In this document: positions 327 through 51,968 of the stretch, piece after piece | Position numbering within the stretch: the stretch's first letter is position 1 | Layout of the letters: each line of letters starts with the position of its first letter | Notes under the pieces: generated by a model | The model's input: only the letters and a program-made list of their open reading frames with translations | Database searches by the model: none | What the model was told of the DNA's origin: nothing | Assembly: GCF_030013595.1 (NCBI RefSeq) | Contig: NZ_CP122768.1 | Length of the DNA: 64,000 nt | Strand: one strand, 5' to 3' | Source of the DNA: Escherichia coli | Lineage (GTDB): Bacteria; Pseudomonadota; Gammaproteobacteria; Enterobacterales; Enterobacteriaceae | Made by a program: the position numbers and the translations under genes

Positions 327-1544
327 TTATTTTTTAGCAACATAACGCAACAGGCTGCACTGAAAGATGGTCTTAAACCAGCGGGAATCGAAGTCCCTGA
401 CTTGCCTCAGGAAAAATACGGCACCGGGTTTACGGTCAAATACAGCTTCAAAAGAAGTATTTCCGCTTGCCACAGCTGCAGCGAAGACGGGTAACCAGGC
501 CACGGAATAGCGGTGATTTGCGTCAGGATTAATACCAATCACTGGATTTTTTTGTGACATCATCCATTTATACAGACGCTTGCAGCCATATTCAGGCCAG
601 CGAGCTTCACTGTGCTCACGTAAAAGCTCCTGATACCACCCGTGGACACAAGATTCAGGAATAGACGGAGGGAGATATCCGTTACTTAACCATTTCTCAA
701 TTTCATCGGCATATGTCGGGAACACGAGCCCCAGCCGTTGAAACATATTAGTAACCAGTAATTTCTGGGTTTCCTCCGGTGCACCTTTTTGGCTCAGGAA
801 CAATTTGAAACGCTCAGATGCAGCTTTGATCTCAAAGATGGGGAAAAACTCCCATAGAATAGGGAACTCATTCTCAATACGACTCAGGTACTCTGCTGAC
901 ATTTCAAATTTGAAGAGCGACATCGCCAATGCCTGCGGATGCTGCACTAGTGCACGCCATACTTCAAAGGTTGCCAGCGGTAAATAACCAAATTGATCGT
1001 ACAGGCTACGCATAAATTGCCAGCCGGAATGGGCAGGATCGTTAGCCATCTGTCCGAGAACCAGTGTGATGGTATTAACTTCTGCCTGTGGATTAAAAAG
1101 CTGGGTCGCTTTCTGCAATGAGCGGATGTTGCTTTCTTCTACCGGTAACGAAGATTCGCCACGAATGAAGCAGGGGCGAAAAGCCATCTCCTCACCCGGT
1201 TTAGGAACAACCAACCATGGCCCATTTTTGTTAACGATTGAGCTCAACTCATATTCACCGACAGGCACTCCCTCGCTCATTCTTGATGCTAAGGGGATGG
1301 ATTTCCTCTCGGGTTCACTTAACAGCATGATAACGGGGGAAGGAATCTGCCCAGCACGATGGTTCACTGACTGGCTGAGTAATAGTTCTTTTTCATAATC
1401 ATAGCGCAGGCTGTATTTATAGCGACGAATTTGCCAGGCCATGACCACACCTGCCCCCGTAATACGCATCTCAACAACCTGATCAATACCTGCCTCAAGT
1501 GAAATCAGGTTCTCAATATGTTCGCGCAGACTATAGAGATTCAA
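327..1544 (-). CDS. Uncharacterised 405-aa protein; middle gene of the 3-gene operon
   Basis: Long uninterrupted ORF in the track; 18-bp gap to the upstream gene, 12 bp to the downstream gene; no motif I recognise (no Walker A, no obvious nuclease motif). Confidence 0.7.
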   Translation of the reverse strand: MNLYSLREHIENLISLEAGIDQVVEMRITGAGVVMAWQIRRYKYSLRYDYEKELLLSQSVNHRAGQIPSPVIMLLSEPERKSIPLASRMSEGVPVGEYELSSIVNKNGPWLVVPKPGEEMAFRPCFIRGESSLPVEESNIRSLQKATQLFNPQAEVNTITLVLGQMANDPAHSGWQFMRSLYDQFGYLPLATFEVWRALVQHPQALAMSLFKFEMSAEYLSRIENEFPILWEFFPIFEIKAASERFKLFLSQKGAPEETQKLLVTNMFQRLGLVFPTYADEIEKWLSNGYLPPSIPESCVHGWYQELLREHSEARWPEYGCKRLYKWMMSQKNPVIGINPDANHRYSVAWLPVFAAAVASGNTSFEAVFDRKPGAVFFLRQVRDFDSRWFKTIFQCSLLRYVAKK

Positions 1545-1562
1545 TTCAACAGGACGATCGCT

Positions 1563-3617
1563 CTACGCCGTATAACACCATTCATGCCATGCCTGTAATC
1601 CACTAACGGAGCGCAAATACAACTGCAATGTATATTTTGTCGGCTCACCATTTCTGGAGAACAGAAACGCTCTGGAACCCAGCAGATCATGCAGCGTAAT
1701 GTTTTTATCCAGAGGACGTCCGTTTACATCAAGAGCGAGACAGCCTTTAGCGGGAAAAGGTAACTCAATGTCGATGGGGTCAGCCGCCAAATTAGGCAGA
1801 ACTTGTAATGTAATAAATGCCGGAGGTACCCCTTCCGCTTTAAGTTGTATCTCTGTTCGCCCCTCAGTACGCTTACGTGTAGCCTCCAATGTTTTATCTT
1901 TAAGTTTTGCTACACAAGGATGCTGTGTGGTGATTAAGATAGTGCCTTCATTTGCGTGCATTCCACCTTTTATCTCAATACTGAAATCAGCAGGCAAGAT
2001 ACCGATTTTGCGACGCAAGAGCGTTTCATTGTTACTATTACGGATAGAAAGATATTGAGCCCCCAGCATCTCTTGTATATGACATTGCTCAATTGAAATT
2101 CCGCTCAGGTAACGCGTTACATCAATGCTTTGAATATCCGGTAGTGTAGAAATGACTTTTGGTACACCAATAAATGTTTCATCTGGATGACAAACCCAGC
2201 TTGCACGCTTTCCATTTAGAGCAAACCTTCCGATGCTGATTTGTTCTCTTCCGGTGCGAATCCGATAAGTTTCATTTGCTGTAACTGTAACGTCCTGACA
2301 TCCCTTCACAGGTAGTGCTTTTAGTCCTAATACGTTTACTGCGCTCGATTGGCCATCAAAACCAGCAACATTGCTATTATCCCGAGGGAGTACAATCAGA
2401 ACATCGCTGCTTCGCACACTGCAAGAAGCCTGTCCCTGTAACAGCCATTGATCTGCATCAACGATGAAGGTTAACGGCACCTCACCAATGGCAATTTCAC
2501 TGTCATCAAGTTTAATGCTCCCAACAATCATCCCTCCAGCACGAGCCACTAATGACAAACCAGCCGATGGATTTTGCCTGACAAATCTCACTTCGCTTTT
2601 ACGTAATCGAACTGTTGCCTGTCTGTTTTCCAGGGAAGCATAGGCTGGCCCAAGGCCAGAGACTTCCTCACCATCTTCACAAATGGCAAGTTCAAAGCGC
2701 GTAGTTGACGGCTCGCTTGTTACAGGAAAGGAAACTTCGTCCGGAAGAGATACTATCACCCTAAGCTCATCTGGATGCTTTTCTGACCAATAGAATTGGC
2801 AACGCGTACTCTTATTTTTTTGTAGTCGAGGCTTAGCCTCTACAGAGGCTGCGCATAGCAGTCCATTCAAAAAATGCGTTCCTGTTTCATCATCTAACGG
2901 TATTGGAAACTCGCTTCGCCAGGTAGGGTGAACCTTCTCAAGCTGTTGTACTGGTTCTTTGTGATTTATTAGGTTGTGAGTAAGTACTAAGGAATTGAGG
3001 TTATCAGCCATATGACTGATAAGTTCTACAGAGGTATCTTCGCTAAAAACAGTTGGCAGCGCTGATTTTTCTATGACAGCTCTTGCCAGCGAAAGGGCAG
3101 AAAAACCTGACTGCTTTGCTTGCTCATATTGTCCAAGGATCCTGGAGAAAACAGCCAGAAAGCGACTGTCTGATTCTTTGAGTAGCCGGAAAGGTAAACC
3201 ACCTTCACTGAATAATGTTCCGAGAAAATTGCGTCGTTCAGATTCATAAAATCGAATTGGGCGCAGCCAGTAATCTTCCATCCCTTTCGGTACGATAGTA
3301 CCAAGCTCTGTGGCGGTGAATGAAATCCCTATTTTTTTATATATAGGGTCCCACGTCCATCCGCATTGCCGTTCATAATCCCTGCGGTACCACTCAGAGC
3401 AAAAAAGAACAAAACAGGCAGCAAAGTCCCTATTACATATATTAGATTGTGATTGACCGACCGCACGGAGTAGCTGCGTTAATTGGGTATATTCATCATT
3501 GGTTGCATGATATTCATAAAGAGGACGGCCATCCGGTTGTCTCAACCCTCTAAGATTCACAAAGTTACTTAGCCAGGAAGTACATTTTACCCATGAAATG
3601 TATTCTGATTGACCCAA
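1563..3617 (-). CDS. Uncharacterised 684-aa protein; first gene of the 3-gene operon, positionally equivalent to K-12 yjiT
   Basis: Long ORF next to yjiS with an AT-rich promoter region upstream (3618..4115); GC content visibly lower than neighbouring core genes; no recognisable catalytic motif. Confidence 0.7.
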   Translation of the reverse strand: MGQSEYISWVKCTSWLSNFVNLRGLRQPDGRPLYEYHATNDEYTQLTQLLRAVGQSQSNICNRDFAACFVLFCSEWYRRDYERQCGWTWDPIYKKIGISFTATELGTIVPKGMEDYWLRPIRFYESERRNFLGTLFSEGGLPFRLLKESDSRFLAVFSRILGQYEQAKQSGFSALSLARAVIEKSALPTVFSEDTSVELISHMADNLNSLVLTHNLINHKEPVQQLEKVHPTWRSEFPIPLDDETGTHFLNGLLCAASVEAKPRLQKNKSTRCQFYWSEKHPDELRVIVSLPDEVSFPVTSEPSTTRFELAICEDGEEVSGLGPAYASLENRQATVRLRKSEVRFVRQNPSAGLSLVARAGGMIVGSIKLDDSEIAIGEVPLTFIVDADQWLLQGQASCSVRSSDVLIVLPRDNSNVAGFDGQSSAVNVLGLKALPVKGCQDVTVTANETYRIRTGREQISIGRFALNGKRASWVCHPDETFIGVPKVISTLPDIQSIDVTRYLSGISIEQCHIQEMLGAQYLSIRNSNNETLLRRKIGILPADFSIEIKGGMHANEGTILITTQHPCVAKLKDKTLEATRKRTEGRTEIQLKAEGVPPAFITLQVLPNLAADPIDIELPFPAKGCLALDVNGRPLDKNITLHDLLGSRAFLFSRNGEPTKYTLQLYLRSVSGLQAWHEWCYTA

Positions 3618-24542: not shown

Positions 24543-25715
24543 ATGATTGATTATACCGCAGCCGGTTTTACCCTGCTGCAGGGAGCGCATTTGTATGCGC
24601 CGGAAGATCGGGGAGTTTGCGATGTCCTCGTCGCTAACGGCAAAATTATCGCCGTTGCCAGTAATATCCCTTCTGACATTGTACCGGACTGCACGGTTGT
24701 CGATCTCAGCGGGCAGATCCTCTGCCCAGGTTTTATTGATCAACACGTCCATTTGATTGGCGGTGGCGGTGAAGCAGGTCCCACGACGCGCACGCCGGAA
24801 GTGGCGTTAAGTCGTCTGACGGAAGCGGGCGTCACGTCAGTGGTTGGTCTGCTCGGCACTGACTCTATCTCTCGTCACCCGGAATCCCTGCTCGCCAAGA
24901 CCCGTGCGCTCAATGAAGAAGGCATCAGCGCCTGGATGCTGACCGGCGCTTATCATGTCCCTTCCCGCACCATTACAGGTTCCGTGGAAAAAGACGTGGC
25001 GATTATCGATCGCGTGATTGGTGTGAAATGCGCCATCTCTGATCACCGTTCTGCCGCACCTGACGTTTATCACCTGGCTAATATGGCGGCGGAATCCCGC
25101 GTTGGCGGTTTGCTCGGCGGCAAACCTGGCGTCACCGTGTTCCACATGGGCGACAGCAAAAAGGCGTTACAGCCTGTCTATGACCTGCTGGAAAACTGCG
25201 ATGTGCCGATCAGCAAGCTGCTGCCGACCCACGTTAACCGCAACGTTCCGTTGTTTGAGCAGGCGCTGGAGTTTGCACACAAAGGCGGCACTATCGACAT
25301 CACCAGCAGCATTGACGAACCGGTCGCCCCTGCCGAAGGTATTGCCCGCGCCGTTCAGGCCGGTATTCCGCTGGCACGCGTCACCCTCAGCTCCGACGGC
25401 AACGGTAGCCAGCCGTTCTTCGATGACGAAGGGAATTTAACCCATATCGGTGTTGCAGGTTTTGAAACGTTGCTGGAAACCGTGCAGGTGCTGGTCAAAG
25501 ACTATGATTTCAGTATCAGCGATGCCCTGCGCCCGCTCACCAGTAGCGTAGCCGGTTTCCTTAACCTGACCGGGAAAGGCGAAATTCTGCCTGGCAATGA
25601 CGCAGACTTACTGGTCATGACGCCAGAATTGCGCATTGAGCAGGTATACGCTCGCGGCAAACTGATGGTCAAAGACGGCAAAGCCTGCGTGAAAGGAACG
25701 TTTGAAACGGCATAA
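24543..25715 (+). CDS. iadA: Isoaspartyl dipeptidase
   Basis: 390-aa ORF with amidohydrolase-type metal-binding motif (HVHLIGGGGE); synteny. Confidence 0.9.
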   Translation: MIDYTAAGFTLLQGAHLYAPEDRGVCDVLVANGKIIAVASNIPSDIVPDCTVVDLSGQILCPGFIDQHVHLIGGGGEAGPTTRTPEVALSRLTEAGVTSVVGLLGTDSISRHPESLLAKTRALNEEGISAWMLTGAYHVPSRTITGSVEKDVAIIDRVIGVKCAISDHRSAAPDVYHLANMAAESRVGGLLGGKPGVTVFHMGDSKKALQPVYDLLENCDVPISKLLPTHVNRNVPLFEQALEFAHKGGTIDITSSIDEPVAPAEGIARAVQAGIPLARVTLSSDGNGSQPFFDDEGNLTHIGVAGFETLLETVQVLVKDYDFSISDALRPLTSSVAGFLNLTGKGEILPGNDADLLVMTPELRIEQVYARGKLMVKDGKACVKGTFETA

Positions 25716-25779: not shown

Positions 25780-26691
25780 ATGGATGACTGTGGTGCGGTT
25801 TTGCATAATATTGAAACTAAATGGCTTTATGATTTTCTGACCCTGGAAAAATGCCGCAATTTTTCCCAGGCGGCAGTTAGTCGCAACGTCTCGCAACCGG
25901 CATTCAGCCGCCGCATCCGTGCACTGGAACAGGCGATTGGCGTTGAATTGTTTAACCGCCAGGTGACGCCGCTGCAACTCTCGGAACAAGGGAAAATCTT
26001 TCATTCGCAGATCCGCCATCTGTTGCAACAGTTAGAAAGCAACCTGGCAGAGCTGCGTGGCGGCAGCGATTACGCGCAACGTAAAATCAAGATAGCCGCT
26101 GCACACTCTCTTTCCCTCGGTCTGTTACCGTCCATTATCAGCCAGATGCCGCCGCTCTTTACCTAGGCGATTGAAGCCATTGATGTTGATGAAGCGGTCG
26201 ATAAACTGCGTGAAGGGCAAAGTGACTGTATTTTTTCCTTTCACGACGAAGATTTGCTGGAAGCGCCGTTTGACCACATTCGCTTATTTGAATCTCAATT
26301 GTTCCCCGTCTGCGCCAGTGACGAACACGGAGAAGCACTGTTTACCCTCGCGCAGCCACACTTTCCGTTACTGAATTACAGCCGCAACTCCTACATGGGG
26401 CGATTGATTAATCGCACCCTGACGCGCCACAGCGAGTTAAGTTTCAGCACCTTTTTTGTCTCTTCGATGAGCGAGCTATTAAAGCAGGTTGCCCTCGACG
26501 GCTGTGGGATTGCCTGGCTGCCGGAATACGCCATCCAACAAGAAATTCGCAGCGGGCAGCTCGTTGTACTGAATCGGGAAGAACTGGTGATCCCGATTCA
26601 GGCCTACGCATACAGGATGAACACCCGTATGAATCCCGTTGCCGAACGCTTCTGGCGTGAACTGCGCGAACTGGAGATTGTGCTTAGCTGA
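25780..26691 (+). pseudogene. hypT: LysR-type regulator HypT (YjiE) interrupted by an in-frame TAG
   Basis: Two track ORFs (25780..26166 and 26254..26691) lie in the same frame, separated only by TAG at 26164..26166; I checked the codons on either side by hand and found no other stop. N-terminal HTH and C-terminal LysR substrate domain are otherwise intact. Confidence 0.8.
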
Positions 26692-27076
26692 CATTCTCCA
26701 GCGTCGCACTACGCCAACCGCCATTATCCCAGACCAGATCAAACGTTAGCGGTTCATCGTCGTGGTACAGCATTATCTCAAGGCTGATCGCCAGCGTGTG
26801 GCAGTACGCTTCTTTCAAATTGACCTGCAACGCCGCAATCCGTGGCTCATGAAATAACAGTGCAGAACGCAGCTGACGGCAATACCAGCTCTGAAGATGT
26901 TTGTCGCTCTGGTTATGCACTTGCCACTCGGGCATGCCTGAAACAAGTAATGACGGTAATGCCGAATGAGGAGAATTAAAAAGAGTGAGGAGATCGCTGC
27001 ATACCGATTTACGCAGCGATGACGTTTTATTGCCTGAAATTTCAGGTAAAACAGCCTGAAGTGATTGGCGCATCAT
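26684..27076 (-). CDS. iraD: Anti-adaptor protein IraD (RpoS stabiliser)
   Basis: [23 protein letters not shown]... (130 aa from the second Met); synteny next to hypT. Confidence 0.85.
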
Positions 27077-32770: not shown

Positions 32771-34114
32771 ATGCATGTGCTTAACATTCTCTGGGTGGTA
32801 TTCGGCATTGGTCTGATGCTGGTACTGAATTTGAAGTTCAAAATCAATTCAATGGTGGCTTTGTTGGTGGCGGCGCTGTCCGTCGGGATGCTGGCGGGCA
32901 TGGATTTGATGTCGCTGCTGCACACCATGAAAGCGGGCTTCGGCAACACGCTGGGGGAACTGGCTATCATCGTGGTGTTCGGTGCGGTCATCGGTAAATT
33001 GATGGTCGACTCCGGCGCGGCGCACCAGATAGCGCATACGCTGCTGGCGCGTCTCGGTCTGCGCTATGTACAGCTGTCGGTGATTATCATCGGCCTGATT
33101 TTCGGTCTGGCGATGTTTTATTAAGTGGCCTTTATCATGTTAGCGCCGCTGGTTATTGTTATTGCCGCCGAAGCTAAAATTCCGTTCCTGAAACTGGCGA
33201 TCCCGGCAGTAGCAGCTGCCACTACCGCACATTCACTGTTCCCACCGCAGCCGGGTCCGGTGGCGCTGGTGAATGCTTATGGCGCGGATATGGGGATGGT
33301 TTATATCTATGGCGTACTGGTGACGATCCCAAGTGTCATCTGCGCAGGTCTGATCCTGCCGAAGTTCCTCGGCAATCTTGAGCGCCCAACGCCATCATTC
33401 CTGAAAGCAGATCAACCGGTAGATATGAATAATCTGCCCTCTTTCGGCGTTTCGATTCTGGTGCCGCTGATCCCGGCGATCATTATGATCTCTACCACCA
33501 TCGCCAATATCTGGCTGGTAAAAGATACCCCTGCCTGGGAAGTGGTTAACTTTATCGGTTCCTCGCCGATTGCAATGTTTATTGCGATGGTGGTTGCATT
33601 CGTACTCTTCGGCACCGCGCGCGGGCACGATATGCAGTGGGTGATGAACGCTTTTGAAAGCGCGGTGAAGAGTATTGCAATGGTGATTCTGATCATCGGT
33701 GCGGGTGGCGTGCTGAAGCAGACCATCATCGACACCGGCATTGGCGACACCATCGGCATGTTGATGTCCCACGGCAATATCTCGCCCTACATCATGGCAT
33801 GGCTGATCACCGTACTGATTCGTCTGGCGACGGGTCAGGGTGTCGTTTCGGCGATGACCGCTGCCGGGATTATCAGTGCAGCAATCCTTGATCCAGCAAC
33901 TGGTCAGCTGGTTGGCGTGAATCCGGCGCTGCTGGTACTGGCGACGGCTGCGGGTTCCAACACCCTCACCCACATTAACGATGCATCTTTCTGGTTGTTC
34001 AAAGGTTACTTTGACCTGTCAGTAAAAGATACGTTGAAAACCTGGGGTCTGCTGGAGCTGGTCAACTCCGTGGTTGGGCTGATTATTGTGCTGATTATTA
34101 GCATGGTAGCGTAA
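32771..34114 (+). pseudogene. gntP: GntP-family gluconate/fructuronate permease interrupted by an in-frame TAA
   Basis: Track ORFs 32771..33124 and 33125..34114 are in one frame; the only break is TAA at 33122..33124 (...[15 protein letters not shown]...). Combined length 447 codons, as expected for GntP. Confidence 0.8.
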
Positions 34115-46473: not shown

Positions 46474-47454
46474 ATGAACGCAATAATATCGCCCGATTAT
46501 TACTATGTTCTTACCGTTGCTGGTCAGTCTAATGCCATGGCGTATGGCGAAGGACTGCCATTACCGGACGGGGAAGATGCGCTTCATCCCAGAATTAAAC
46601 AATTAGCGAGATTTGCGCATACGCATCCCGGAGGCCCGTCATGTCACTTTAACGACATTATTCCACTGACTCACTGCCCACACGATGTTCAGGATATGCA
46701 GGGTTATCACCATCCTCTGGCAACGAATCATCAAACACAGTACGGCACCGTTGGCCAGGCACTGCATATAGCACGGAAATTACTGCCCTTCATTCCTGAT
46801 AATGCAGGGATTCTCATCGTTCCGTGTTGCCGTGGCGGATCGGCTTTTACCGCGGGCAGCGAAGGGACATATTCAGAACGGCACGGAGCCAGCCATGATG
46901 CTTGTCGTTGGGGAACGGATACTCCGCTATACCAGGATTTAGTCAGCAGAACGCGAGTCGCACTGGCAAAAAATCCGCATAACAAATTCCTCGGCGTATG
47001 CTGGATGCAAGGCGAATTTGACTTAATGACCAGTGACTACGCGTCACACCCTCAATACTTTAATCATATGGTTGAAGCCTTTCGTAGGGATCTAAAACAA
47101 TACCATTCTCAGCTTAATAATATTACTGACGCACCGTGGTTTTGCGGCGATACCACCTGGTACTGGAAAGAAAATTTCCCTCATGCGTATGAAGCGATTT
47201 ATGGCAATTATCAAAATAATGTTTTAGCCAATATTATTTTCGTCGACTTCCAGCAACAAGGTGAAAGAGGACTGACGAACGCGCCTGATGAAGATCCGGA
47301 CGATTTAAGCACGGGATATTACGGTTCAGCGTACCGGTCACCGGAGAACTGGACGACGGCACTGCGAAGCAGTCATTTCAGCGCGGCAGCCCGTCGGGGG
47401 ATTATTTCTGACAGGTTTGTAGAAGCAATTTTGCGGTTTTGGCGCGAAAGGTGA
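46474..47454 (+). CDS. nanS: 9-O-acetyl-N-acetylneuraminate esterase NanS
   Basis: 326-aa ORF; synteny in the nanCMS operon. Confidence 0.85.
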   Translation: MNAIISPDYYYVLTVAGQSNAMAYGEGLPLPDGEDALHPRIKQLARFAHTHPGGPSCHFNDIIPLTHCPHDVQDMQGYHHPLATNHQTQYGTVGQALHIARKLLPFIPDNAGILIVPCCRGGSAFTAGSEGTYSERHGASHDACRWGTDTPLYQDLVSRTRVALAKNPHNKFLGVCWMQGEFDLMTSDYASHPQYFNHMVEAFRRDLKQYHSQLNNITDAPWFCGDTTWYWKENFPHAYEAIYGNYQNNVLANIIFVDFQQQGERGLTNAPDEDPDDLSTGYYGSAYRSPENWTTALRSSHFSAAARRGIISDRFVEAILRFWRER

Positions 47455-47608
47455 GCGTTCATTAATTTGATTTATTTGCATCCATTAGCGCTTTTAACTG
47501 CTCCGGCGAAAACGGTGGTTTGCGTCGGTGCAACATCGCATGGCAATTGGGGTACACAGGCAGCAAAAAAACAAATGAGATCAAGGTAATATATCTTCAC
47601 TTGCAGGC

Positions 47609-48538
47609 TTGAACAGCAGAAAATTTGCGAGCATGATCGCAATTATTTCACTGCCAGGGATATCAATGGCTTCCAGTAAATCGCTACAGCAGGCAATTGC
47701 CAATATAAAAATCTGGCACAAGGGTGAACAGCGCGCGCCGCATAAGCCATTGTTATTGCTATACGTATTAGCGGGATACCTGAATGGACATCCGCGCCTT
47801 TTCGATTATGGATCGGAAATCTACGAACCTCTGCACAGTTTACTGGAACGTTTTGGGCCACAGCGTTCACAGTACCGACCTGATATGCCGTTCTGGCGAT
47901 TACAAGGCGACGGATTCTGGCAATTACACAATGCCGAGCTTTGCTCAACAGCAGGGAGCAGCCGACAACCACCAGTGAAGGAACTGATTGAATACCACGT
48001 TGCAGGCGGTTTCGATGAACAGCACTACGCCCTGGTAACTGGCAATAAAAAACTCATCAATACTCTGGCGCAACAGATACTCGAAGCGCACTTCACCGAG
48101 AGTATTCAGGAAGAAATTGCTGACGAGCTGGGTTTTGATCTCCAGCAAATCCGTAAACAGCGCGACCCGTTATTTCGCAAAAATGTATTACGCGCTTATA
48201 AATACCAGTGCGCGATATGTGGCTTTAATATGCGCCACGACGACGCCACCGTCGCGCTTGAAGCGGCGCATATAAAATGGAAACAGCACGGCGGTCCTTG
48301 TGAAATTCCTAATGGCCTAGCGCTTTGCGCAATTCACCATAAAGCCTTTGATAAAGGATCGATTGGCCTGGACGAAAATATGCGGGTACTGGTATCAGAT
48401 GCGGTAAACGGCGGAGGGATCGTTGAGAGATTATTCTGGGATTTTGACGGGAAAACTATTGCGTTGCCGCAGGTGCGTAAAAATTACCCTTATGAGGTGT
48501 TTGTTGAGTGGCATCGGAAAGAGGTTTTTAGGGGGTGA
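47609..48538 (+). CDS. HNH-endonuclease domain protein with uncharacterised N-terminal domain (possible type IV restriction-like enzyme)
   Basis: C-terminal HNH signature CAICGF...EAAHIKWKQHGGPCEIPNGLALCAIHHKAFD; N-terminal ~200 residues unassigned. Confidence 0.65.
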   Translation: MNSRKFASMIAIISLPGISMASSKSLQQAIANIKIWHKGEQRAPHKPLLLLYVLAGYLNGHPRLFDYGSEIYEPLHSLLERFGPQRSQYRPDMPFWRLQGDGFWQLHNAELCSTAGSSRQPPVKELIEYHVAGGFDEQHYALVTGNKKLINTLAQQILEAHFTESIQEEIADELGFDLQQIRKQRDPLFRKNVLRAYKYQCAICGFNMRHDDATVALEAAHIKWKQHGGPCEIPNGLALCAIHHKAFDKGSIGLDENMRVLVSDAVNGGGIVERLFWDFDGKTIALPQVRKNYPYEVFVEWHRKEVFRG

Positions 48539-49094
48539 GGTTGATAACTATCGCAGTATGTTCAATATTGCTGACATAATCAGTGCAGGATCTTGCCGCT
48601 AGTTTACAACTCGCCTTCGATAGCGGCGCAAAACGAGTTCTGTTGCCGATATCCTGGGCTATGGATATTTCAACAGTTCCGGCAGAGTTGTTTACCAAGT
48701 TTCAGGTAAGTTTTTACTCATAACCGGTTGATGCGGTTTATAAGGCGCTGGATGTGAATTAACACATTCCTCAGTTTATTTACAAAAGGATTATTCCCAT
48801 TTGATATAATATAAGTGCCAATTTACTTTTTCAATGGAATATATCTCGGCTAAATAACAATAAAACTTATCGCTAATGGATTAAATAAACAATTTTCTAA
48901 TTTATTTCACCACCTTTGATATAGAAATTGATGGTGTTGTCGCTGCCATTGCTTATGGTGATGATAAAATCCACGTTTCTGGATCGGTGCGTAGAAAATC
49001 ATCACTACCTTGATATTTTGATGCGATATGATCATACCGTTCCGTAGTACCAATTTCAACTTCAGGCTAAACCCCAACATTAAAAAATTTAGAG

Positions 49095-49136
49095 TTATTC
49101 ACTGATTATATTATCATTAATATAATCAGTGAATAA
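49095..49136. repeat. Perfect 19-bp inverted repeat with 4-bp spacer
   Basis: TTATTCACTGATTATATTA-TCAT-TAATATAATCAGTGAATAA, checked base by base; lies 116 bp downstream of the 651-aa gene. Confidence 0.8.
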
Positions 49137-49251
49137 CATGGACTATATAATAAATTGCTCTAATCATTTCCCTTACGAATATATGGGCCAAAAGCCCAAG
49201 AATCATAATAAGGGTGATGGACTAATTTTTCATTAAATCGAACACTATAAG

Positions 49252-51207
49252 TTAATTTTTTATATTTTTACGTACAGCATTAATACTGGGCAAAGAGGAA
49301 AGATAATCTATAAACTTATCGATAGTGATTTCCCCTTCGCAACACTCAAACCCATCAATGATATTTTTCGCCATTTTTCCATTTTCATTTGTTTGATATA
49401 TCACTCCAGGTATTCGTTGAAAAAAACTAGATAATGCATATTTGTCCGCTACATATGTATCATCCACATGATATTTCCCACCGAGCATAGTTGTAGTAAC
49501 AATAAGCTTATACACACCTTTGGGTTGCCATGTTGATGGTAGTTCGAATTCTTTAATGATCACATCAAGATGATTAAGATAATGTTCAGAAATTCGATTT
49601 ATTTGTTGAAAATAAGAACGCATAAATTTATTATTATGATCATGTATTAATGAGCTATCTCCAACGATGTTACACACTTGCTGATAGTACTTACCATAAT
49701 ATATTGGTTGACCATTTGATTTTAGTTCTGTAAAAATCAAACAATCATCCAAGAGAATCACGCAATCGCACTGATAATTAGCATGAGCATCAATTGGAGA
49801 AGCTTTAATCCCCGCATCACGAACTTGTTTTATAAATTGTTGTTCATGAAATCGCCCTTTACTTGCTTGAGAAATTTTTTTGGAACCAAATAATGACATT
49901 AGAGAGCGAGTCACTGAGCTATTTGCTATTAATGCAGGCATTAAGAATAAACCGTCCATACAGGGAATAAATGGGCAATCATTAAGATCATGTGATTTTG
50001 AATTGAAGGTAAAATAATCTATCAGTTTTTTTGCTGCATCTGCTGCAATCCCCTTACGTTGAAAGAATGATAACCAACTCTCACGGCTTTTTATGATCAG
50101 CCAGCGCTCCAACTGTAGGGGTATAGGCTTTGTCGATGAAAATCTTTTGCTCATTTCTTCTTTAGATAACTCGACTAAACATTGATAAGCGTGCACCCAA
50201 TTAAATAATGATATATTCCCATATTCTTCATGAAGGTCATCAGGAGACATATTTTCTAACTCGCTTAGATGAAATGAGCTAAAAACGCCATCAGAATTTA
50301 AGTAAGATGGCATATGATCCTTTACCCAACTATTTAGATGAAAATGTTTGTTACTAAATTCATGAACTTCGCTATATAGATGTGACGCTCTCATCATTAG
50401 TCTATTTCTTGCAATCTCATAATCTCGGTATAAACAAAAACTATCAACCTCAAGAGAGTAAATGTTATTATCCAATTTTGTAAATACTGCACTACTTAGT
50501 CTGAAAAAATCTCTTACTCTGCTTAATGAGTCAAAAACATTCCACTCATTAAGGTACCCTCCCATTGAAAGCAAGGTTTGTTTATTCACACAAGAAGTTA
50601 GTTTCAATGGCCCATGAGTCCGTAAATAAGAAAATATTCTTCCGGTGTAATTGGCTACCTCATCAAATGCCCTATCGATAACTCGAAAATATTCGATATC
50701 AGGTTCAGCATGAATATTAATATTTTCAGAAACGATAAATAATGGAAAAATCCTCTTCATTTTTTTAGGATCATTGACCACAACCAAGGATGATAATGAT
50801 GATAAAAACATCTCACAAAACATGATGAGATTAAGTATTAATGCATGTGATTTTTTTGTATTTTTACGCCAAATACCAGCACATTTTGTAGCCGCAAAGA
50901 AAGAATTATTTATATCATGCATAATTTTACATTGACTCTCGAACTCAGAGATTAGTTCAATGTTATCAGGAAATGAGTTTCCTAGCTCATTAATACATTT
51001 TTTGAATGTATTGTTATACTCAACTTCAGTCTGAACTGAAAATCTATTATAATAGATGGAAGATATTCTTAGCACATCCAAGGCGATATCTATACTAATA
51101 TCATCTCTTTTTATGTACTCACAAAAAAAAGAACAAAACTGTTTCGGGTCGTTAGCAAGATTACTAATTCTAGTGGTATCATAAACTTTTTCCATTTTTC
51201 CATACAT
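49252..51207 (-). CDS. Uncharacterised low-GC 651-aa protein at the leuX islet
   Basis: Long ORF in strongly AT-rich DNA immediately 3' of tRNA-Leu (leuX); possible PD-(D/E)xK-like motif (CDCVILLDDCLIFTELK) near residue 480; otherwise no recognisable domain. Confidence 0.7.
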   Translation of the reverse strand: MYGKMEKVYDTTRISNLANDPKQFCSFFCEYIKRDDISIDIALDVLRISSIYYNRFSVQTEVEYNNTFKKCINELGNSFPDNIELISEFESQCKIMHDINNSFFAATKCAGIWRKNTKKSHALILNLIMFCEMFLSSLSSLVVVNDPKKMKRIFPLFIVSENINIHAEPDIEYFRVIDRAFDEVANYTGRIFSYLRTHGPLKLTSCVNKQTLLSMGGYLNEWNVFDSLSRVRDFFRLSSAVFTKLDNNIYSLEVDSFCLYRDYEIARNRLMMRASHLYSEVHEFSNKHFHLNSWVKDHMPSYLNSDGVFSSFHLSELENMSPDDLHEEYGNISLFNWVHAYQCLVELSKEEMSKRFSSTKPIPLQLERWLIIKSRESWLSFFQRKGIAADAAKKLIDYFTFNSKSHDLNDCPFIPCMDGLFLMPALIANSSVTRSLMSLFGSKKISQASKGRFHEQQFIKQVRDAGIKASPIDAHANYQCDCVILLDDCLIFTELKSNGQPIYYGKYYQQVCNIVGDSSLIHDHNNKFMRSYFQQINRISEHYLNHLDVIIKEFELPSTWQPKGVYKLIVTTTMLGGKYHVDDTYVADKYALSSFFQRIPGVIYQTNENGKMAKNIIDGFECCEGEITIDKFIDYLSSLPSINAVRKNIKN

Positions 51208-51883: not shown

Positions 51884-51968
51884 TGGTGCCGAAGGCCGGA
51901 CTCGAACCGGCACGTATTTCTACGGTTGATTTTGAATCAACTGCGTCTACCGATTTCGCCACTTCGGC
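51884..51968 (-). tRNA. leuX: tRNA-Leu (anticodon CAA), leuX
   Basis: Reverse complement of 51884..51968 is GCCGAAGTGGCGAAATCGGTAGACGCAGTTGATTCAAAATCAACCGTAGAAATACGTGCCGGTTCGAGTCCGGCCTTCGGCACCA, with wild-type CAA anticodon and encoded CCA end. Confidence 0.95.

Follow-up and report, generated by a model that had tools for sequence, protein, structure and literature searches.

In a 64,000-nucleotide stretch of Escherichia coli DNA (hereafter the window), the gene encoding the hypochlorite-responsive LysR regulator HypT carries a single amber codon in place of the Trp129 codon. The locus is a genuine, heritable, lineage-specific nonsense pseudogene of an ordinary type, representing a gene-inactivating allele of a kind for which public genomes already contain annotated examples. 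An inherited G:C to A:T change at position 26165, which converted Trp129 into an amber codon and left a young hypT pseudogene, very probably accounts for the whole of the observation.

Translation shows that the amber TAG (26164-26166) shares its frame with the hypT ATG at 25780. Past the TAG, the frame reads AIEAIDVDE... to the normal stop codon at 26689-26691 and contains no other interruption. The locus is composed of the following features:

25780..26691, plus strand: hypT (yjiE/qseD) frame, 303 codons plus stop, with one interruption
26164..26166, plus strand: Trp129 (TGG) changed to amber TAG; the changed base is 26165, G to A
25780..26166, plus strand: predicted 128-aa product ending ...SQMPPLFT, from translation, Pfam and the Salmonella structure
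26167..26691, plus strand: remainder of hypT, codons 130-303, untranslated, from alignment to the intact allele

The identity of the gene is established by the conserved order of iadA (24543-25715), hypT (25780-26691) and iraD (26684-27076, minus strand), by its near-identity to K-12 b4327 and by the presence of HTH_1 and LysR_substrate domains. The same gene order is found in K-12 and in the genome HCP5S3_I2, whose 99.9% identical locus is annotated as hypT. When aligned to K-12 b4327, the window gene differs at 29 nucleotides and four amino acids (V7, T189, Q260 and E267), in addition to the stop. Codon 129 of K-12 MG1655 hypT (b4327) is TGG, encoding Trp. The uninterrupted frame of 303 codons that a functional hypT possesses is therefore broken by the TAG at codon 129; whereas K-12 and Salmonella HypT (PDB 5YDW, 5YDO) are intact, the window translation ends at residue 128. 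An earlier sequence-only reading had described a hypT frame split by one TAG and had given TGG at this position in K-12; frame, synteny and the alignment to b4327 agree with both statements. Relative to intact orthologues, the gene contains one in-frame stop that is derived and heritable, as is characteristic of a nonsense pseudogene.

The derived state of the codon is evident from comparison with HCP5S3_I2 (pig faeces, UK), the nearest complete RefSeq genome. Around hypT the two sequences differ at one base in 6,912 bp, which is the G versus A at 26165; over the whole comparison there are ∼42 SNPs across 62 kb plus IS1 and IS3 differences. Codon 129 is TGG in K-12, O157:H7, HCP5S3_I2 and 2012C-4221, and a 31-mer carrying TGG matches 5,241 of the 5,426 complete RefSeq E. 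coli genomes, with 836 matches when the window flanks are used. The corresponding TAG-centred 31-mer with window flanks matches 0 of the 5,426, and the window haplotype is absent from this set. The hypT amber codon postdates the split from HCP5S3_I2.

The amber allele is carried by many other deposited sequences. The exact 128-aa product is found on 136 contigs (253 index blocks). Across 6.4 kb, TAG included, two loci, L003 and L004 (GCA_002968075.1 and GCA_012651895.1), show no difference from the window. Further carriers were found by searching with the downstream 145-aa ORF, and the same haplotype, with hypT split, occurs in GCA_002968075.1, GCA_002460785.1, GCA_021649405.1, GCA_002233385.1, ERR4899789, SRR31486705 and ERR5386557, which differ from the window by 1-5 SNPs across 11-20 kb; one locus (L027) additionally has a 5-bp indel. 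Overall, the TAG and the haplotype recur in eight or more assemblies or read sets of independent origin, with 0-5 SNPs over 6-20 kb. Chance statistics do not apply to a single base change, for which reproducibility across assemblies is the relevant test. Since the same haplotype and the same TAG recur across many independent assemblies, the TAG is a true heritable marker of a small clade rather than an artefact. A search by WGS accession for publications on the carrier assemblies found none.

The predicted product was compared with the known domain organization of HypT. Pfam assigns HTH_1 to residues 14-72 and LysR_substrate to residues 99-297. In the structure of Salmonella HypT, which is 82% identical (PDB 5YDW/5YDO), the DNA-binding domain (DBD) spans residues 1-93, the hinge residues 94-99 and the regulatory domain (RD) residues 100-302 (PMC6397515). 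The linker helix α-4, itself part of the DBD, holds the DBD dimer together, and the HypT tetramer depends on the RD-RD as well as the DBD-DBD interface (PMC6397515). The HOCl-binding residues are Ser110, Tyr205 and Met206, the last of which has been called the hallmark (PMC6397515); Met123, Met206 and Met230 are each needed for HypT activity (PMC6397515; PMC3792123; PMC7464077), and Cys150 is required for stability (PMC3792123). The residue at the Trp129 position is not invariant, being Tyr in Salmonella HypT.

The 128-aa product retains the hinge and the full winged-HTH DBD, linker helix included, along with the first 29 RD residues (100-128), among them Ser110 and Met123. Tyr205, Met206, Met230, Cys150 and the RD-RD dimer interface are lost, together with ∼86% of the effector domain; a fragment that keeps the DNA-binding domain and lacks the effector domain is also what the sequence-only reading had described, and both Pfam and the published domain boundaries bear this out. 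The DNA still has codons for Ser110, Met123, Met206 and Met230, but the last two lie 3' of the stop and would be untranslated.

The G:C to A:T transition at 26165 would have occurred in an ancestor of the sub-lineage, changed Trp129 to amber and been inherited since. RF1 would terminate translation after residue 128. Because Met206, Met230 and the dimer interface are gone, HOCl-responsive regulation should be lost; judged from domain content, a HOCl-responsive tetrameric regulator should be unable to form. The lost outputs would comprise the induction of Met, Cys and sulfur genes and the repression of iron uptake, making hypT in effect a young pseudogene. As a counter-point, the gene carries no signal of decay in this lineage, and the 525 bp downstream of the stop match the intact allele at every position. 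LysR regulators cut down to DBD plus linker are able to dimerise, and by analogy the 128-aa fragment may have some residual DNA binding. Isolates of the lineage are predicted to be without HypT adaptation to hypochlorite, either derived from neutrophils or originating from chlorine disinfectants, and any QseD input to motility or virulence regulation is likewise predicted to be lost.

No in-frame ATG or GTG was found between the stop and Met206. The first canonical in-frame start after the stop is a TTG at 26254 (codon 159), which has no convincing Shine-Dalgarno sequence, and the 173-aa ORF called by the annotators begins at an ATT located 3 nt past the stop. The idea that the gene is split and that its RD half still works was considered and rejected on the absence of ATG or GTG before Met206 and of a Shine-Dalgarno sequence at TTG159; with no good downstream start signal, a useful RD-only protein is unlikely. 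Polarity is not an issue because iraD is convergent and no co-transcribed gene lies 3' of hypT.

The possibility that the strain truly has TGG and that the TAG is a sequencing or assembly error deserves attention because the change is the only difference from the closest complete genome in 6.9 kb and because TAG with these flanks occurs in no complete RefSeq genome. The sequence-only reading had itself proposed a check against other assemblies, and the outcome of that check speaks against error: the TAG haplotype is shared by the independent assemblies and read sets described above, which come from different projects, the 128-aa product has been deposited on well over a hundred contigs, and 26165 lies outside any homopolymer. 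An error is extremely improbable and is effectively refuted for the lineage. Alternatively, the codon might be read through, by a suppressor tRNA encoded elsewhere or by a near-cognate tRNA, to yield useful full-length HypT. The undamaged state of hypT 3' of the stop and a second derived amber codon in the sub-lineage, in yjiT (1563-1565), are consistent with this reading, and an amber suppressor could reside in glnV, tyrT, serU or another gene beyond the window. It has been argued (PMC7918605) that persistent in-frame stops in bacterial genes reflect readthrough, which would also favor it. The single tRNA gene in the window offers no such suppressor:

51884..51968, minus strand: leuX, tRNA-Leu with anticodon CAA (wild type, not supP), the sole tRNA in the window

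The anticodon is confirmed as CAA, upholding the earlier statement that no supP is evident in the window. Several further observations argue against readthrough. Of the 34 coding SNPs, two are nonsense changes, which is about what unselected recent mutation would give, with the expected rate being our own estimate. An ochre codon in gntP, in the same region, is beyond rescue by an amber suppressor, and one other lineage with the Trp129 amber (L011, described below) shows further decay of hypT. Basal readthrough of UAG in E. coli is low. Useful readthrough is thus considered very unlikely, and an inherited nonsense pseudogene remains the preferred reading.

The two other interrupted genes were also characterized. 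In yjiT (327-3617, minus strand), codon 685 is TAG at 1563-1565 and TTG (Leu) in HCP5S3_I2, and the amber codon splits the 1,096-aa YjiT into ORFs of 684 aa and 405 aa. The 684-aa product occurs in 26 blocks, including GCA_021649405.1, which is also a hypT-amber carrier. In gntP (32771-34114, plus strand), an in-frame TAA at codon 118 (33122-33124) gives ORFs of 117 aa and 329 aa. The gene is split in HCP5S3_I2 as well, where it is annotated 'internal stop', and the hypT-amber loci that reach gntP (L027-L030) have the same split, with ORFs of 117 aa and 325 aa. As the split is common to HCP5S3_I2 and the hypT-amber carriers, the gntP pseudogene appears to be older than the hypT mutation.

Stops at Trp129 are not restricted to the window clade. 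They occur on at least seven haplotypes, four with TAG (the window clade, L005, L007 and L011) and three with TGA (L006/L009, L008 and L010). Among the complete RefSeq genomes, 4 of ∼5,245 have a codon-129 stop, all on other haplotypes: CP059288.1 and CM172482.1 have TAG, and CP025903.1 and CP035822.1 have TGA. These four resemble the window in the gene, the codon and the 128-aa product. They differ from it at codon 130, which is GCA instead of GCG, and, in the haplotypes compared, by 6-21 nucleotides in the first 540 nt; being on different haplotypes, these other codon-129 stops arose independently. PGAP flags the gene as a pseudogene with an internal stop in the two that were inspected, CP059288.1 and CP025903.1. 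In L011 (GCA_016671825.1), the Trp129 TAG lies on a divergent haplotype that has also suffered a 359-bp deletion of hypT nt ∼500-858, a further loss as expected of a dead gene.

Other nonsense alleles of hypT are present as well. Q51*, Q61*, Q70*, Q84*, Q100* and W246* were all found mid-contig with real stop codons, and Q61* is on at least four haplotypes. Many prefix records on short contigs are genes cut by contig ends, and only counts from long contigs and inspected loci were used; raw counts from deposited contigs of Gln-to-stop prefixes had been tried as a baseline and were dropped since most were such contig-end cuts. With every one-step nonsense allele that was sought being on record, hypT appears to be dispensable in nature. 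A text search of the literature for nonsense or pseudogene alleles of hypT returned only unrelated papers. In the loci L003-L010, gene callers list the disrupted hypT as two LysR family genes, one of 128 aa and the other of 145 aa (from the TTG) or 173 aa (from the ATT). Such split calls inflate protein databases with fragments, and hypT here should be annotated as a pseudogene rather than as two LysR-family genes.

A different truncation of the same gene is known from O157:H7. In strain PV15-279 (L014), hypT carries Y17*, a TAT to TAA change at codon 17, for which PGAP gives a 284-aa product restarting at codon 20 and no pseudogene flag. PGAP treatment is inconsistent in this respect, with the O157:H7 Y17* allele given a 284-aa product and the codon-129 stops called pseudogenes. 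PMC5053249, citing Habdas et al. 2010, reports a truncated QseD (QseD, YjiE and HypT being one protein) in EHEC and, citing Habdas 2010, reports that the truncated QseD of O157:H7 represses ler. The O157:H7 and window alleles are alike in that a nonsense mutation has been fixed in a natural lineage in the same gene. However, the O157:H7 stop precedes the HTH, so that the RD is kept and the N-terminal start of the HTH region is lost; the window allele is the opposite, with the HTH kept and the RD lost. The window gene is not a short QseD of the O157:H7 type: its codon 17 is TAT (Tyr) and its stop is at codon 129.

The O157:H7 precedent raises the alternative that the truncation is a selected (pathoadaptive), functional isoform, acting as an HTH-only, signal-blind repressor that would dimerise by its linker helix and occupy HypT/QseD operators, as an RD-only restart product like O157:H7 QseD, or as both. 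The reported repression of ler by the Y17* product (PMC5053249, citing Habdas 2010) favors this alternative, as do the presence in the fragment of linker helix α-4, the DBD dimer interface (PMC6397515), and the recurrence of Trp129 stops on the haplotypes listed above, including the non-hot-spot TGA. On the other side, the one-step nonsense alleles at Q51, Q61, Q70, Q84, Q100 and W246 are recorded too, as expected for a gene that is dispensable and has been sampled very widely. Trp129 stops are also rare among complete genomes, a good restart signal was not found downstream of the stop, and the 29 orphan RD residues would probably destabilise the fragment. A functional isoform is accordingly rated highly improbable. 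The broader proposal, that HypT/QseD truncation is selected in natural E. coli (Y17*, Q61* on its several haplotypes and W129* on its own, TGA included) and that the 128-aa HTH-plus-linker fragment is a signal-blind DNA-binding isoform rewiring HOCl, iron, motility or LEE regulation, is decidedly unlikely. Simple inactivation by an inherited nonsense mutation is preferred over both.

The context of the mutated base suggests how such a mutation could have arisen. The ancestral sequence is ACC TGG GCG, and enumeration of CCWGG motifs identifies a Dcm site at this point:

26162..26166, plus strand: ancestral Dcm site CCTGG, now CCTAG

Position 26165 is the fourth position of CCTGG and pairs with the inner C, the Dcm-methylated position, of bottom-strand CCAGG; the substitution has turned G:C into A:T at the inner base pair of the CCWGG motif. 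Such sites are hot spots for G:C to A:T transitions, with deamination of 5-methylcytosine partly countered by Vsr repair (PMC13250602; PMC2715241). Deamination of the bottom-strand 5-methylcytosine would give exactly the TGG to TAG change. Six CCWGG sites are present in hypT, four of which could give an amber codon (Q30, Q61, W129 and W246). The nonsense alleles were counted in index blocks, where the counts mix independent events with clonal expansion and the W129* count pools TAG and TGA:

W129*, Dcm site (TAG route): 253 index blocks, 131 on contigs >10 kb
Q61*, Dcm site: 111 index blocks, 45 on contigs >10 kb
Q51*, non-Dcm: 74 index blocks, 5 on contigs >10 kb
Q70*, non-Dcm: 91 index blocks, 3 on contigs >10 kb
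Q84*, non-Dcm: 113 index blocks, 1 on contigs >10 kb
Q100*, non-Dcm: 48 index blocks, 3 on contigs >10 kb

On contigs >10 kb, W129* and Q61*, the two amber alleles at Dcm sites, outnumber the others, and the four non-Dcm Gln-to-stop alleles account for 1-5 blocks each, a pattern in keeping with a hot spot. The occurrence of Trp129 TGA, which is not at the 5-methylcytosine position, on three haplotypes versus four for TAG speaks against the hot spot as the sole cause. Amber hot spots at CCAGG in lacI are the classical example of this type of mutation. The window allele is like them in that a G paired with the inner C of CCWGG has undergone a G:C to A:T change giving TAG; unlike the lacI hot spots, its origin is read from sequence context only. 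An origin of the Trp129 amber codon at the Dcm site is plausible, at roughly even odds; the dcm gene itself lies outside the window. With its two most abundant amber alleles at Dcm sites, hypT may serve as an example from nature of a mutational hot spot familiar from textbooks.

Several other differences between the window and HCP5S3_I2 were recorded. In the window, a type III effector/pentapeptide-repeat gene (12669-14639, plus strand) forms one unbroken ORF of 656 aa; in HCP5S3_I2 the gene is interrupted by IS1. Around 4272, between yjiS and yjiR, the window is without an IS3-family element that HCP5S3_I2 carries. A hypothetical gene adjoining leuX (49252-51207, minus strand, ∼650-680 aa) has a 1-bp indel at 49256 relative to HCP5S3_I2, which is near the 3' end of the gene and alters the C-terminus. 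The segment beside leuX (46700-51200) is variable, and the annotation of its 99.9% identical counterpart in HCP5S3_I2 lists gene remnants, among them an HNH endonuclease fragment, along with a restriction endonuclease that binds phosphorothioated DNA.
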